From IMG/VR virus record IMGVR_UViG_3300013104_000019, positions 23,474 to 87,473 of that record: a stretch of DNA of 64,000 nucleotides; one strand, 5' to 3'. Each line of letters begins with the position of its first letter. The stretch's first letter is position 1. Positions 11,685 through 64,000 of the stretch are shown here, piece after piece. The notes under the pieces were generated by a model. It was given only the letters and a program-made list of their open reading frames with translations, made no database searches and was not told the DNA's origin. The translations under genes were made by a program, and so were the position numbers. The stretch is from a virus. Its lineage: Duplodnaviria; Heunggongvirae; Uroviricota; Caudoviricetes.

Positions 11685-12197
11685 GTGCAACCCTGTAGCT
11701 GCGGTTATGTGAATTGCTCGGATAACGAGTATTGTGGTAAGTGCGGTCGTCCCTTCATCGAGAAGAAGACTCGCTACTATTGCAGGCAGTGCGCGTGTGA
11801 GCGCAAGCAGGCAGTGTGTCAAAAGTGTGGTGGCGAGTGTTTCACACCCTCGATCGATTGGGAAGAACCGAGGTTGCCTGACATCGACAAGATTCGCGCG
11901 CTTGCCAAAGAGATCGGCTACGCTATTGGCGTTCATGGCACGCTTGAGCGAGACTTGGATGTGATTGCGGCTCCGTGGACCGAAGAAGCACTCAAGTACA
12001 ACTGGCGTGAGGTGATGGACCATATCGCCAAAGGAATGAATGGACGAGTGGTGGAGGCCAGTTGGAAACCTTTGGGAAGACGGGCTTGCACAATTCTCAT
12101 CGACGGCTGGTACAAGGACATTGACTTGTCAGTCTGTCCGATCCTTATTCAGAAAGGAACACAAGAAGATGAAACATCTGGTGGTGTATCACAATAG
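11685..12197 (+). CDS. Cys-rich zinc-ribbon protein (GTG start)
   Basis: N-terminus CSCGYVNCSDNEYCGKCG...CRQCACERKQAVCQKCGGEC has four or more CxxC pairs. RBS aaggattaatcGTG. Confidence 0.5.
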   Translation: MQPCSCGYVNCSDNEYCGKCGRPFIEKKTRYYCRQCACERKQAVCQKCGGECFTPSIDWEEPRLPDIDKIRALAKEIGYAIGVHGTLERDLDVIAAPWTEEALKYNWREVMDHIAKGMNGRVVEASWKPLGRRACTILIDGWYKDIDLSVCPILIQKGTQEDETSGGVSQ

Positions 12198-13134
12198 CTG
12201 CATGGATGGTTTTGTGTCGGCGTGGATTGTTTATCATTCGCTGATTCGTCGGGGAGTTGTGGAGGACGACATCGAATTTCTCGGAGCGGACTACGGTGAT
12301 CCGATTCCGGACATGACGGGTAAGAACGTCTTTATCGTCGACTTCTCGTGGTACAACGTCGAGAGCTTTCTCAAGCAAGTTGAGAAAGCAGTCGAAGTGA
12401 AGATGCTCGATCACCACAAGGAAGCGTACAAAGTCTGGAAGGATGTCAAGCTTCCGGCCAACATGATCTATAAGCACGAATTGCCGCAATCGGGCGTCGG
12501 AGTTGTGTGGGATTATTTCCACCCGCACACTCATGCACAAATGCCGCCGATTCTTGCGCACATTCAGGATCGCGATTTGTGGAAGTTCAACATCAAAGGC
12601 TCGCGACAAATCCATGCATTCTTGAAGTCTAAGGGCTTCTTGCTGCGTGATACGGATCGGGACACTTTTTTAGCCAAGCTCAAAGAGTTCGGCGCTAACT
12701 ATGCGTGGCTATCTGTCGGTGCATTGCAACCGCTTTACACGATCGGCCAAGCGATCATGGATGCCGAGACGGTTTTGGTCTGCTCGATTCTGGAGCGCAA
12801 CAAGACCTATGCGGAATTCACCTGCTACGGACTGAAGGACGATGATTCGGGAGACATGGAACCGAAGAAACGCTATTTCGTTCCAGTAGCGGAAATGCCG
12901 CATGAACTGGCTGATGAAGCCGGCGACATCATGGGGCATGACGATCCGTTCTCGATTACTTACGAGACCAACTGGGCGTTGGGTAAGCGTCGTTTCTCGG
13001 TTCGTAGCCGTAAAGGATACGGAGTTGATGTCGGGGAAATTGCCAGAGCCATGGGTGGTGGTGGACACCAACATGCAGGTGGTTGGTACGACTCGATCTG
13101 GCTGGACTTTCCGTTCCGTATTACCCGCAAATGA
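12169..13134 (+). CDS. DHH/DHHA1-family phosphoesterase (NrnA/GdpP-like nanoRNase or cyclic-nucleotide phosphodiesterase)
   Basis: Trimmed to MKHLVVYHNSCMDG (DHH motif I H-N-x3-DG). Later MLDHHKEAYK (the DHH motif) and GGGGHQHAGGW (DHHA1 GGGH motif). RBS agaaaggaacacaagaagATG. Confidence 0.75.
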   Translation: MKHLVVYHNSCMDGFVSAWIVYHSLIRRGVVEDDIEFLGADYGDPIPDMTGKNVFIVDFSWYNVESFLKQVEKAVEVKMLDHHKEAYKVWKDVKLPANMIYKHELPQSGVGVVWDYFHPHTHAQMPPILAHIQDRDLWKFNIKGSRQIHAFLKSKGFLLRDTDRDTFLAKLKEFGANYAWLSVGALQPLYTIGQAIMDAETVLVCSILERNKTYAEFTCYGLKDDDSGDMEPKKRYFVPVAEMPHELADEAGDIMGHDDPFSITYETNWALGKRRFSVRSRKGYGVDVGEIARAMGGGGHQHAGGWYDSIWLDFPFRITRK

Positions 13135-59703: not shown

Positions 59704-61920
59704 TTACCAATTTGCCCAAGAAGGTTTAACAGGCTCGTCGTATTCCAACTTGCCGCTCCAATCTGCTTCCATTCCTTCCATCTCTGCGAAGTTCTCAAGC
59801 GCCGCACACTGCTCTTCGAACACCCACTCCGGCAAGAACTCCGGACCCGGATACAACGGACTCTGAGTCAACGGATAGTTCTCAATCGCAGCATTGGGTA
59901 CAGGACCGCCACCCAAGATCTCATTGACTTGCTGCTTACTCCACGCCATGATGTCGTGTGAGCGTGTCGAGATGTTGGGCTTGTCTCCCGTATCCAACTT
60001 CACGTTCCAGATGTGCACGGGACTGTCCTGACCATTACGATCAGTACGTGCGACGGCTTGTTCGTACTCGTAAGAGCGAAATGGCACGTTCATCATGATC
60101 GTGTTGTTCGCCATCACAAGCGGCACTGCTGTCGAGAGCGAAGCGAAGGTCGCACACAGCGGGTTGACGTCCGGATTCTTCTCAAACGTCCCTACGTGAG
60201 CTGCAAGGTCGTTATTGGTTGCTCCGTACACCAGAATTGGCCGGTAACCCAGTTTCTTCAACTCCGCATTGGCTGCATCCACTACCGGTACGTAGGACGT
60301 GAAGATGATGGTCTTCTTCTCGGCCTGATCGATGATTTCAGCAATCGTGATCGGCACGTACTCATCCTTACCGCCCTTGCTGTCCTTGACTTCGAACCAC
60401 TTGCCACGCAGCATGTCCTCGTGACACTTCACGCGTGCCTGACCCAGTACCTTACCCAAAGCCTCACCCTGCACCTTGAGCATGTAGTACTTGATGATGG
60501 AACGGATGTCTTTGAACTTGTCCCGCATCTCCTTCGGAAGAACAGGCATGATGACCTTCTTCTCGTAGTGATTACAGAACGCACTCATGTCGCGCATTTC
60601 CTTCGGGTCAAAGCCTTCCCGGATTTTCGCGATGTACGACTTGTACAGTTCGTACTCCTTCCACTTGTCTTCCTTGTGACCTACGATAGTCGCCACCAGT
60701 TGAGCCGTCACGCCTTTCTTGGGCAGAGCCACTCGCTCGAAGTACGCCAAGATGTCCTTATACTGCTTCTCGTACGACGACATGTTGCGCTGGTAGTACG
60801 CCACTCGCTCCTTGACGAACTTCACCATCTGTTCCTTGATGGCTTCGAGCGTATAGTCATCGCCGTTATCCATCTTGACGGCGACTTTGTGCGTGTGCAC
60901 TTCGTTACTCACCACGCTACGCTTGGAGACGTGGAAGTGCACATTACCCATGCGGTGATGCAGGATGTCGTTAGCCGCACTGGAAGACTTGCCGTAGATG
61001 GCCTGAAAACGCCGCTGAGCGTCTTCGTCGAAGAAGGGGTCTATCGTACTGAACAGGGGCGTAGCTTCCCGTCCTACGGCCTTAATTGGCGTCCCAGAGG
61101 ACCAGATCACGTGATTGCTGCGCGTATAGCGACAGATCTCACGGAAAGTCTCGGAACGCAGCGAGTCGTACTCGTTCAAACCGTGCGATTCGTCCAGTGC
61201 AATCATCACGTTACCGCTTACGCCAATCTTTCTCAGATGGCTAAGCAGCTCAGGTAGCGCGTCGAAGTGACAGATCAGGTACTTGTCCTGACGTGTCGGT
61301 GCGCGATCCATGAGCGAATGCCAGTAATGCGGCACCCGCTTGAACCGCTCTTCGAAGGTGGCTGCCCAAACGCGCTCGACTGCGTTCTTCGGACACACGC
61401 AAATGAGAATGTTCACCCCCAAGCACAGCGACAAGCCGATACACATCAGCGTCTTGCCCGTACCCGGATCAGCTCCAAGCAAATACCCTTTCAGCTGGTA
61501 CTTCGGCACCACCTCGTTGTAGATGCCAAAGAACTCCATCTGATGGTCCATCATCGTGACGTTGAGTTCATTCAGATGGGTGTAATTCAGGATGTTCGGA
61601 TGCTCTTGACGCGTGGACTTAAGCCACGTGTTTTCAAACATCAGATCGTAAGCACGACGCAAGGCGCGGATGTTGTGGCCTTTCTTGTGCTCAGCGATAA
61701 TGCGGCTGAAGATGTACGCCACATCCACAGCAAAAAACTTGTTGAACGACACCTCGCTATTGGAAATGTGCGTGAACACATTGTCCGCGATCTTGCGTGT
61801 ATTCCAGATGTCGTAGATGGACTTTTGGACGGTGTCACCCGGCAGTCCGGAGATGGTAATCAGGTCCCCTGATTCTCGTACAGAGATGAGTCCGATCAAC
61901 CTCCGCAGGCTCGCAAACAT
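59704..61920 (-). CDS. SNF2/DEAD-like superfamily-2 helicase
   Basis: LGADPGTGKTLMCIG (Walker A), IALDESHGL (DEXH box), WSSGTP (motif III), YEQAVARTDRNGQ (motif VI Q..R..R.GQ), with a ~240-aa N-terminal extension. Confidence 0.85.
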   Translation of the reverse strand: MFASLRRLIGLISVRESGDLITISGLPGDTVQKSIYDIWNTRKIADNVFTHISNSEVSFNKFFAVDVAYIFSRIIAEHKKGHNIRALRRAYDLMFENTWLKSTRQEHPNILNYTHLNELNVTMMDHQMEFFGIYNEVVPKYQLKGYLLGADPGTGKTLMCIGLSLCLGVNILICVCPKNAVERVWAATFEERFKRVPHYWHSLMDRAPTRQDKYLICHFDALPELLSHLRKIGVSGNVMIALDESHGLNEYDSLRSETFREICRYTRSNHVIWSSGTPIKAVGREATPLFSTIDPFFDEDAQRRFQAIYGKSSSAANDILHHRMGNVHFHVSKRSVVSNEVHTHKVAVKMDNGDDYTLEAIKEQMVKFVKERVAYYQRNMSSYEKQYKDILAYFERVALPKKGVTAQLVATIVGHKEDKWKEYELYKSYIAKIREGFDPKEMRDMSAFCNHYEKKVIMPVLPKEMRDKFKDIRSIIKYYMLKVQGEALGKVLGQARVKCHEDMLRGKWFEVKDSKGGKDEYVPITIAEIIDQAEKKTIIFTSYVPVVDAANAELKKLGYRPILVYGATNNDLAAHVGTFEKNPDVNPLCATFASLSTAVPLVMANNTIMMNVPFRSYEYEQAVARTDRNGQDSPVHIWNVKLDTGDKPNISTRSHDIMAWSKQQVNEILGGGPVPNAAIENYPLTQSPLYPGPEFLPEWVFEEQCAALENFAEMEGMEADWSGKLEYDEPVKPSWANW

Positions 61921-61970: not shown

Positions 61971-62000
61971 GGCTAGAGGCAGGTTTCCCCGCCTCTAGCC
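61971..62000 (-). terminator. minus-strand intrinsic terminator upstream of the helicase gene
   Basis: ggctagaggcaggtttccccgcctctagcc. On the minus strand it is followed by TTTTTATTCCG. Confidence 0.7.
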
Positions 62001-62029: not shown

Positions 62030-62434
62030 TCAGTGAGGTTGCTGCACGAGTGCCGAGAGTTCTTTCAGCTTGTTGCGCTGGACCTGCTCGACGGAGAAGA
62101 TCGCTTCATCGGTGAGTGCCAACTGAGCTTTGGCCAGTGCCGTCAGAGCCCGCGCCATGTGAGCGCTGGCATTCGTACCAAAGCGGATTTTCACACGATG
62201 CCGAAGCATTTCCAGAAGTGCGACTTCCGTAACACCGTGCTGGCCGAATCCCGCTGCTTGCGGATCAAATTGAAATCGCGTGATGCTGCGCTCGCCCCTC
62301 CCCTCGACGAGTTGATGTTCGATCACGTATTCCTGTCCGGCGGGCACGCTCTCGCCTCGGACTTCGTAAAGCGCTGCTCTGTCGTCCTCGTAAATCGGGA
62401 CGTCTTCTTTGGTCTGCTCGACTTGCGTGCTCAT
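62030..62434 (-). CDS. small hypothetical protein, tandem paralog family member A
   Basis: Trimmed to MSTQVEQ. ...ALYEVRGES...RFQFDPQAAGFGQHGVTEVALLEMLRHRVKIRFG shares the G-(F/L/V)-T-(D/N/E)-(E/A)-A-L-L-A-x-L-x-H-R pattern with the 63021.., 63368.. and 63691.. genes. Confidence 0.5.
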   Translation of the reverse strand: MSTQVEQTKEDVPIYEDDRAALYEVRGESVPAGQEYVIEHQLVEGRGERSITRFQFDPQAAGFGQHGVTEVALLEMLRHRVKIRFGTNASAHMARALTALAKAQLALTDEAIFSVEQVQRNKLKELSALVQQPH

Positions 62435-62572
62435 GCTTAAAACCCCGTAGTTAAATGGTAGGCGAAGATGGATTTTCACCACCGGCTCTTTTCCGGCTGC
62501 TGCTATGCCCAAACCTGAGAGGCGTGCTCACCGGCCCAGTACCGCGCACACTGGTTCGCTATCGCCCCTTGA

Positions 62573-63028
62573 TCAGCTGGCTTCGAGGATATGGCGTGCA
62601 ATCTGCGATGCATCATCGTGCAGATACTTCAGCAGCGCATTCCTCACATCATCCGGAAGATATTGCGAAGCGATGTCCGACTCGATCTTCCACGTCTCGA
62701 TCGCATGACGAATCGCCTGCAAGACGTCTTCTGCCTTTTCGCCGTGTCGGATGTTGAAAGCGAGGGAAAAGCGTTCCACCTTCCCGTCGCATTCCACATC
62801 CACTGCGTACAGATCGCCCTGTTCGAGCGGTCCACGGTAGAAGCCGTCTTCACCCTTGACGAAGTCCACCCGCCAGAACTTCACGTTCTTCATCTCGAAG
62901 AGCAGAACTTCCGGCGGATGGCACAGTTCGTCGATGTGAAAGATGCAGGAGGTCATCCCTCGTGCCTTCGGTACGGGAAACGACTTGGCTTCTATCACCG
63001 GTGCTGGTTTCGGTAACTTGTCAGTCAT
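62573..63028 (-). CDS. hypothetical protein
   Basis: Trimmed to MTDKLPKP after ggagag RBS, ATGA overlap with the upstream gene. Confidence 0.5.
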   Translation of the reverse strand: MTDKLPKPAPVIEAKSFPVPKARGMTSCIFHIDELCHPPEVLLFEMKNVKFWRVDFVKGEDGFYRGPLEQGDLYAVDVECDGKVERFSLAFNIRHGEKAEDVLQAIRHAIETWKIESDIASQYLPDDVRNALLKYLHDDASQIARHILEAS

Positions 63029-63371
63029 TGATGATGCTCTCCAGAGTCTGAATCCACTCACCGTAGACCATGCTGTCGATCAGGGGCGTGTCTTCTCGGT
63101 TGCGCTTCTGCTCAAAGCGGAACTTCAGAATCGCCGCAAGCGCTGCATCCGTGATGCCAAAGGGACAAACAATATCGTCGTTGAAGTAGCGCTTGAAATC
63201 CATCGGCATGATGGACTGATGGTTCGGTTGGATCGTCTCGATGATGATGCGCTCACCGGGTTCCAACTCCATCTCAGCACCATCCACGTTCACCTTCAGG
63301 ATGGTCGAGACGCGAAGGTCGTCTTCTTCGTAGATGACCTTCTCATTCGACTTCTCGGCGAAAGCGCTCAT
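63021..63371 (-). CDS. small hypothetical protein, tandem paralog C
   Basis: ...CPFGITDAALAAILKFRFEQK... Confidence 0.5.
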   Translation of the reverse strand: MSAFAEKSNEKVIYEEDDLRVSTILKVNVDGAEMELEPGERIIIETIQPNHQSIMPMDFKRYFNDDIVCPFGITDAALAAILKFRFEQKRNREDTPLIDSMVYGEWIQTLESIIND

Positions 63372-63694
63372 GATACGTCTCGCCGTTTGGCCGCAGCGAT
63401 GGTTTCCTCAACGTCGCCGAGATACTCCGCTGCATGACGCCATTGATCGTTTCCGGTTGCAGCGTGCTTCAATTGCATCCGGTGTCGAAGAACTGCGAGT
63501 AGGGCTTCGTCCGTAAAACCGAGACCACCGCTGCCGGGTGTAACTTGGAAGTACAGATCGAATTCCTTGGTCTGCGCTTCCCCGTTGAACGTGACGGCGA
63601 ACATTACACCAGGTGCCAGTGCTTTGCTCGGACGGATAACCACGTTGTCCTTCTCGAAGATCGGAAGGTTTTGGTCGAGGGACTGGGCGCTCAT
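63368..63694 (-). CDS. small hypothetical protein, tandem paralog D
   Basis: ...GGLGFTDEALLAVLRHRMQLKH...; ATGA overlaps on both sides. Confidence 0.5.
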   Translation of the reverse strand: MSAQSLDQNLPIFEKDNVVIRPSKALAPGVMFAVTFNGEAQTKEFDLYFQVTPGSGGLGFTDEALLAVLRHRMQLKHAATGNDQWRHAAEYLGDVEETIAAAKRRDVS

Positions 63695-64000
63695 GCTTTC
63701 AGCTGCCCTTCCACGCCGCGCGCCATACGTTTTGCAGTACGCTCATTGAACATGAACAGGTTGAATGCGCGCTTCATGTGCGACAGCGCCAGTTCGTTTT
63801 CTTCGCACGGGAACTTCGCGTTGAGCGTCGACGTCCGGTGGATGACGATCGCCAGCATCGCTTCGTTTGTCAGACCAGTCACGCCTTCCTGCGGGATCGG
63901 ACCGTCTTGGAAGAAGATGAAGCGCGTTTCAGCCTGACCTTCCTTGTTGGTCCAGCGCACTTCGTAGTAGTGGCCGAGTGCGAACGTGTCTTCACCGAGG
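63691..64000 (-). CDS. small hypothetical protein, tandem paralog E (5' end outside window)
   Basis: Reading frame stays open to the window edge (...ALGHYYEVRWTNKEGQAETRFIFFQDGPIPQEGVTGLTNEAMLAIVIHR...), matching paralog A's ALYEVRGES...TEVALLEMLRHR. Confidence 0.45.
   Translation of the reverse strand, partial: LGEDTFALGHYYEVRWTNKEGQAETRFIFFQDGPIPQEGVTGLTNEAMLAIVIHRTSTLNAKFPCEENELALSHMKRAFNLFMFNERTAKRMARGVEGQLKA

Follow-up and report, generated by a model that had tools for sequence, protein, structure and literature searches.

Tad1 (Thoeris anti-defense 1) is a phage sponge for immune signalling nucleotides (PMC10680739). Its described members, including CbTad1 (7UAV/7UAW), CmTad1 (8KBB) and the Tad1 of SBSphiJ7, are small proteins in which an N-terminal antiparallel beta sheet is followed by a two-helix hairpin. 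The reference assembly is a homo-hexamer (trimer of dimers), which inhibits Thoeris or CBASS. In CbTad1, gcADPR and 2',3'-cGAMP occupy a pocket lined by H29, G55, R57, R78, F82, F87, N92, R109, R113, G120 and N122 (bioRxiv 10.1101/2022.05.03.490397; PMC10680739), and residues R90 and T97 belong to the cyclic-trinucleotide site and the hexamer contacts (PMC10680739). Sponge families have repeatedly evolved new specificities (PMC12393519). The gp184 protein of phage phiKZ has been characterized as a functional Tad1 (PMC12676376; PMC13282480), and a 2026 review describes Tad1 as the only anti-defence protein reported so far in jumbo phages (PMC13282480). In this article, an array of five small genes, designated E, D, C, B and A, at one end of a 64,000-nucleotide stretch of viral DNA (hereafter the window; positions 23,474 to 87,473 of IMG/VR virus record IMGVR_UViG_3300013104_000019) is compared with these proteins. 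The interpretation regarded as probable is that the array constitutes an anti-defence operon composed of one canonical Tad1 sponge, the product of gene E, and remodelled paralogues that are likely sponges or signal binders with other specificities. The Tad1 family is already known, and what is new is the multi-paralogue operon with rebuilt pockets.

The array and the features that close it are as follows.

63691..>64000, minus strand: gene E, cut by the window end; full protein 148 amino acids; alpha-1 motif GLTNEAMLAIVIHR at 63835..63876
63368..63694, minus strand: gene D, 108 amino acids; alpha-1 motif GFTDEALLAVLRHR at 63479..63520
63021..63371, minus strand: gene C, 116 amino acids; alpha-1 motif GITDAALAAILKFR at 63117..63158
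62573..63028, minus strand: gene B, 151 amino acids, between C and A
62030..62434, minus strand: gene A, 134 amino acids; alpha-1 motif GVTEVALLEMLRHR at 62195..62236
61971..62000, minus strand: intrinsic-terminator-like hairpin with a 13-bp stem containing 9 G-C pairs, followed by TTTTTATT (T-run)
59704..61920, minus strand: SNF2-type helicase gene, 738 amino acids, downstream of the hairpin

A first-pass annotation of this DNA, made from its letters, had described A, C, D and E as four reverse-strand paralogues joined by ATGA overlaps and sharing a family motif. Open reading frame (ORF) calls place the four genes at the same coordinates, all on the minus strand, the profile cross-matches described below bear out their paralogy, the motif is present in each of them, and ATGA overlaps are found at the E/D and D/C junctions. 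Genes C and B overlap by 8 nucleotides (ATGACTGA), a gap of 138 nucleotides separates B from A, and the hairpin closes the array after gene A and ahead of the SNF2-type helicase gene. GC content is uniform over the whole array. Full-length E was read from a near-identical IMG/VR contig (L001, 244.6 kb; gene at L001:3971-4417, 148 amino acids), which was found with an exact 42-nucleotide probe and which places the start of E approximately 137 nucleotides past the window end. Because a gene for a 520-amino-acid DnaB-like helicase lies directly upstream of E in this contig, the array ends with E and reads E-D-C-B-A. The best reading of this arrangement, in which overlaps of 4-8 nucleotides join E-D-C-B and a strong putative terminator follows A, is that the array forms an operon. 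Genes A, C and D all begin with ATGAGC(G/A)C, encoding M-S-A/T (window 62424..62438, 63684..63698 and 63371), and the bases upstream of A and D are alike (AAGCATGAGC); such similar 5' ends would be compatible with a common origin of those ends.

Since pairwise identity among A, C, D and E amounts to only about 20-36%, orthologues were gathered for each gene, and the resulting BLAST groups comprise 4 sequences for D, 5 for C, 7-8 for B and 2 for A. Hidden Markov models (HMMs) of the groups were run against all 888 stop-to-stop ORFs in the window and cross-matched none but A, C, D and E (E to A, E-value 1.4e-5; E to D, 1.4e-4; D to E, 3.6e-6; D to A, 7.3e-6; D to C, 4.1e-4), with the next-best ORFs at E-values above 0.15. 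Profile-profile alignment with hhalign gave 95.7% for E-D (E-value 8e-9), 91.5% for E-A (9e-7) and 95% for D-C over nearly the full length (3e-8), compared with less than 1% for an unrelated control family against any group. These alignments include the beta half in addition to the helix; the alpha-1 helix and R78 (CbTad1 numbering) are the best-conserved part across all paralogues. Judged by their profiles, A, C, D and E are true, very distant homologues.

The assignment of this group to Tad1 is most direct for E, which matches the Tad1 chain 8kbb_A in the PDB with an E-value of 9.5e-9 and additionally matches 7uav and phiKZ gp184 (8y6v_I). E also matches phrog_2428 (2.7e-29), as does A (4.5e-6), and orthologues of E bear PF24729, Acb2_Tad1_hairpin, in precomputed annotations. 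Among PDB chains, the A-group profile matched only those of Tad1 (CbTad1 7uav, 2.6e-4), with alignments passing through the sheet and both helices, and an exhaustive HMMER search with the E-group profile recovered 5067 cluster representatives at an E-value of 1e-3 or below. An independent Tad1 profile was built from 117 stand-alone representatives, with no D, C or A sequence among them. Against this profile, hhalign returned 96.7% for D (E-value 4.4e-10, score 57), 95.8% for A (7.4e-9, score 50) and 86-87% for C (4-5e-6, score 36), so that these three are significant homologues of Tad1 at the profile level; B reached 0.6%, with a score within the shuffle null, and the control family 0.3%. Column-shuffled queries scored 11 +/- 2 with a maximum of 21, and 0/40 reached the values of D, A or C. 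The first-pass annotation had named a shared low-complexity segment as the alternative to paralogy, an explanation ruled out by alignments that span beta sheet and helix and that exceed the column shuffles.

The family consensus of Tad1 at alpha-1 is GVNGlTNEaLLAILIhR, and Tad1 shares with the array the alpha-1 signature G-x-T-N/D-E-A-L-L-A-I-L-x-H/D-R. On these profile and motif matches, the motif noticed earlier is the signature carried by the alpha-1 helix in the Tad1 / Acb2_Tad1_hairpin family (PF24729, phrog_2428), and the statement that no known family could be recognised has given way to a family with PDB structures. E is very probably a canonical Tad1-family sponge, and C appears to be the most diverged member that still aligns over the full length.

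Several searches returned no match to this family. The Pfam scan of all five proteins was empty because the PF24729 model was missing from the Pfam copy used, an NCBIfam search gave no match, and HMM profiles of the D, C and B groups found no Tad1 match among PDB sequences. The AlphaFold2 model of D is of modest confidence (predicted local distance difference test score, pLDDT, 73; predicted template modelling score, pTM, 0.46), with strands at 13-15, 18-22, 30-38 and 41-49 and helices at 62-80 and 83-107, which is the order of elements (four strands, then a two-helix hairpin) described for Tad1 (PMC10680739); a Foldseek search of the PDB with this model did not retrieve Tad1. The alignments available for structure prediction were thin: when a 17-sequence super-alignment was used for a word-indexed search, most of the proteins recovered were of the B type, and the C, A and other D orthologues were all missing. 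Given the Foldseek miss and the modest model, Tad1 membership rests on sequence profiles.

Another sponge, Acb2 (anti-CBASS 2), shares with these proteins the helical hairpin of the Pfam family Acb2_Tad1_hairpin and the sponge mode of action, and as a hexamer it binds cyclic di- and trinucleotides. The Acb2 protomer is described as all-helical and is not known to have an N-terminal beta sheet. In this respect the array differs from Acb2: the models of D and B have a beta N-terminal half, and for A, C and E the alignment with the Tad1 profile extends over its beta part. Searching the PDB with E and with the A group brought up Tad1 chains and gp184, but no Acb2.

The paralogues differ in the residues of the ligand pocket. 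E retains eight of the 11 gcADPR-contacting residues of CbTad1 (H29, G55, R78, F87, N92, R109, R113 and G120), and with them the pocket for gcADPR and cyclic dinucleotides that characterizes known Tad1 proteins; the same eight hardly vary within the E group or among the 117 representatives. Differences from CbTad1 comprise a 45-residue N-terminal extension, Leu in place of F82 and Ile in place of R57, the two replacements being found in most of the E-like subfamily, as well as Glu at R90 and Ser at T97. Within the E group, the R90 position is occupied by E, D or T and the T97 position is variable; because R90 is replaced by Glu, the cyclic-trinucleotide site is probably absent from E.

Compared with Tad1, proteins A, C and D are without nearly all ligand contacts, and by alignment they also lack equivalents of R90 and T97; D and C additionally have no C-terminal lid. 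In D, H29 is replaced by V, F87 by T, R90 by D and N92 by W, and T80, D83 and W85, which stand at former pocket positions, are invariant within the D group. A has a 7-residue deletion, according to hhalign, of the alpha1-alpha2 loop that bears F87, R90 and N92. C retains only the equivalent of R78 (its R85), and its group has conserved Arg/Lys residues in the beta half (R41 and R61) and in alpha-1 (K83 and R85). As the known pocket is kept in E only, the other copies are candidates for new specificities.

Gene B had been regarded in the first-pass annotation as unrelated to its neighbours. Its N-terminal beta half, however, matches the C family with an hhalign score of 32-37, against 11 +/- 3 for shuffles (0/40 reaching this score), and B is also tied to D by an in-frame DNA match of 26 nucleotides, at LFEMKNV / IFEKDNV; the C-terminal helices of B gave no match to known families. 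From these comparisons, B is a probable fifth, partly derived paralogue. Among related loci, a 283-amino-acid fusion protein with one B-like and one C-like half is encoded at L009:3463-4314, and a 129-amino-acid C-type protein with a B-type N-terminus, carrying the motif RGMTSxIFHIDEL, at L012:6943-7332. An N-terminal IGRGLxxPI motif is common to B-type and some C-type proteins, for which a targeting or processing role is possible.

The window derives from an uncultured phiKZ-like jumbo phage, because a flanking helicase has homologues 39-44% identical in phiKZ-like jumbo phages and the loci of relatives bear PhiKZ_MCP and divDNAB domains. Syntenic loci in eight further phages were reached through proteins that share 50-97% identity with E, and in each of them the DnaB-like helicase gene is followed by an E-type gene, one to four small genes and the SNF2 helicase gene, so that E is fixed between the two helicase genes in 9/9 related phages examined. 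The gene content after E differs in every relative (E-C; E-D-B-A; E-C-D-(B/C fusion); E-D-C; E-B; and others), with orthologues of C in four related phages, and the genes downstream of E have been gained, lost, reordered and fused. A variable gene set behind a fixed E is typical of accessory counter-defence loci. In comparison with other Tad1 loci, four to five paralogues per operon are present here, whereas in each of nine sampled unrelated Tad1-encoding phages only one family member was found within 4 kb in either direction. In literature searches, no description of Tad1 genes in tandem or as paralogues came up.

The diverged members are also difficult to reach by direct search. No match at an E-value of 1 or below was obtained for A, B, C or D by tblastn against 50,697 GenBank phage genomes, and megablast of the region against GenBank phages was likewise without a match. 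A word-indexed search of 5.8 billion proteins with D returned D itself only, its orthologues being reached by synteny alone. Seeding a related-locus search with the helicase yielded the source contig only, and seeding it with the E group yielded 4 loci.

The ratio of nonsynonymous to synonymous substitution rates (dN/dS) between orthologues is 0.19 for A, 0.11-0.18 for B, 0.14-0.46 for C and 0.17-0.27 for E, compared with 0.08-0.17 for the SNF2 helicase and 0.04-0.09 for the DnaB-like helicase; for D, synonymous sites are saturated and the ratio cannot be computed. Several phages have intact versions of these ORFs, and identity between orthologues is 48-89%. Between the window and the near-identical contig, about 9/26 substitutions in D, C, B and A are nonsynonymous, against 2/24 in the helicase (Fisher p = 0.04). 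These values indicate that the array genes are kept by purifying selection that is somewhat relaxed, with constraint 2-4 times weaker than in the flanking helicase genes as judged by dN/dS. The earlier suggestion of diversifying selection is accordingly not sustained: strong positive selection across whole genes is ruled out by dN/dS of 0.11-0.46, a result from few sequences that applies at the gene-wide scale only. A pseudogene explanation was also ruled out, dN/dS being well below 1.

Considering the homology and the locus together, a mechanism can be proposed in which an uncultured phiKZ-like jumbo phage of the nucleus-forming type would carry the array as an anti-defence operon. E would form a small homo-oligomer, by analogy with solved Tad1 proteins, and would bury gcADPR made by TIR proteins (3'cADPR / 2'cADPR), and possibly cGAMP-type dinucleotides, in pockets at the protomer interfaces; with the signal captured, the Thoeris or CBASS effector would never be switched on. 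D, C and A derive from the same fold and have kept the dimerising alpha-1 helix and the beta sheet, but with nearly all ligand-contacting residues replaced, and B keeps at most the beta half. Most likely, D, C and A would serve as extra sponges or signal binders of different specificities, and their co-transcription with E could allow a wider range of host alarm molecules to be neutralised. The first-pass guess that the array has an anti-defence role fits, because the family is Tad1, a phage sponge for immune signalling nucleotides (PMC10680739).

An extension of this proposal is put forward tentatively, the balance of probability being somewhat against it. In this extension, D, C and A, and perhaps B, would be unrecognised sponge lineages on the Tad1 scaffold, directed at other signals such as His-ADPR, N7-cADPR, cyclic mononucleotides or cyclic oligoadenylates, or would enter mixed oligomers with E, and the interval between the DnaB-like and SNF2 helicase genes would be a hot spot that generates specificities through duplication, shuffling and fusion. 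A single operon that combines a canonical Tad1 with three or four natural derivatives with rebuilt pockets offers a compact, directly testable set for studying how sponge specificity evolves and for asking whether signals or targets exist beyond those of current sponges. Additionally, the locus points to an accessory island of variable content whose position, fixed and easy to recognise, is shared by a clade of phiKZ-like phages.

Several observations weigh against the view that the diverged copies are sponges. A, C and D retain essentially the R78 equivalent only, the register of the alignments being less certain in alpha-2 and at the C-terminus, and C is acidic (isoelectric point, pI, 4.4) and without a C-terminal basic tail. 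Published surveys found substitutions in the gcADPR/dinucleotide site in only about 12% of Tad1 homologues and in the trinucleotide site in about 6% (PMC10680739), and owing to this rarity A, C and D are clear outliers. Having lost almost all known ligand contacts, these three proteins may bind no nucleotides at all.

The strongest of the alternatives, which is nevertheless unlikely, is that the diverged copies have been neofunctionalised to bind a protein instead of a nucleotide, for example some other host factor or a sensor or effector of a defence system. The disappearance of the canonical phosphate- and base-binding residues from A, C and D, the acidity of C, the complete replacement of the helical half of B and the new group-specific invariant residues would all be in keeping with such a change. 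No precedent for it within the Tad1 family was found in the literature searched, however, and the C group keeps the conserved R41, R61, K83 and R85.

Ranking next, and likewise improbable, is the possibility that A, C and D act as modulators that co-assemble with E through the alpha-1 helix, forming mixed pockets that would alter the specificity or capacity of E. The alpha-1 helix, which builds the four-helix bundle of the Tad1 dimer, and R78 are the portions best conserved among the paralogues, while the differences lie in the pocket loops donated by the partner protomer; the gene overlaps appear to suggest translational coupling to E, and E is always present where genes of the D, C or A type are. 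Against this, all characterised sponges are homo-oligomers (PMC12265669), and the subsets of paralogues differ among relatives, so that there is no fixed set of partners.

Comparison with phiKZ gp184 (8Y6V chain I) bears on a third alternative, in which the products would be packaged in the virion and injected, with a mainly structural or capsid-stabilising role. PhiKZ belongs to the same virus group as the window phage (PhiKZ_MCP, DnaB-like and SNF2 helicases), and its gp184, a Tad1 homologue of 230 amino acids, lies within the capsid's inner vertex complex (PMC11297242); among Bacillus phage homologues, some carry the annotation 'putative structural protein', and Burkholderia phage FLC9 carries the domain at the C-terminus of a longer protein. 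A virion role is nonetheless highly unlikely for the array. It is the N-terminal part of gp184 that is wedged in the capsid, whereas the C-terminal Tad1 part is cleaved off and injected (PMC12676376). E aligns with residues 155-226 of gp184 only, that is, with the Tad1 domain (E-value 1e-6), and the window proteins, at 108-151 amino acids, are stand-alone, show no detectable match to the N-terminal part and are encoded among replication genes rather than structural genes. A known structural family, for example head decoration, had been named as an alternative in the earlier annotation; it is not borne out, as the link to gp184 found here runs through its C-terminal Tad1 domain only. In FLC9 gp131 (L002:4290-5306), the Tad1 domain forms the C-terminal third of a 338-amino-acid protein, as in gp184; the window clade, in comparison, has a stand-alone version of 148 amino acids.

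The least credible alternative, that the extra copies are functionless relics on the way to loss, would suit the quick turnover of gene content among relatives, the lost pocket residues and the raised proportion of nonsynonymous changes between the near-identical strains, but it is contradicted by intact ORFs whose orthologues are 48-89% identical, with dN/dS of 0.11-0.46, by the group-specific invariant residues and by the maintained compact, overlapping arrangement.

Beyond the reading of the array as an anti-defence operon, several features of this and related loci were recorded. A conserved gene of 79-86 amino acids (MSRVFN.ALE...), unrelated to the array, served as the negative control in the comparisons. 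Five relatives have it immediately upstream of the SNF2 helicase (L007:7973-8212, L009:4401-4661, L010:7271-7510, L012:7419-7676 and L016:7442-7684), and it is absent from the window, L004, L013 and L018, the window having the terminator after A in that place. In one relative (L016:6453-6656 / L017:2464-2673), a cysteine-rich protein of 67-69 amino acids with a CxxC-type pattern, unrelated to the Tad1-like genes, is encoded right after the E-type gene. In Aeromonas and Shewanella jumbo phages, the gene immediately after the single Tad1-like gene (L025:4274-4768, L026:4278-4763 and L027:4274-4744) carries the annotation RNA ligase / cyclic nucleotide phosphodiesterase and may be a second anti-signalling gene at the same locus.

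Elsewhere in the window, a 364-amino-acid ORF (12040..13134, plus strand) has an N-terminal DHH-family domain that scores just below the Pfam threshold (27.9 vs 28.1 bits); it could encode a RecJ-like nuclease or else a phosphodiesterase acting on nucleotides, and the second of these would offer another route to the destruction of signalling nucleotides. A 577-amino-acid ORF (18523..20256, plus strand) contains YadA_stalk (E-value 2.5e-11) and YadA_anchor (4.6e-16), domains that form the C-terminus of a trimeric autotransporter adhesin and are unusual in a phage, and it might represent a fibre or a host-derived module.

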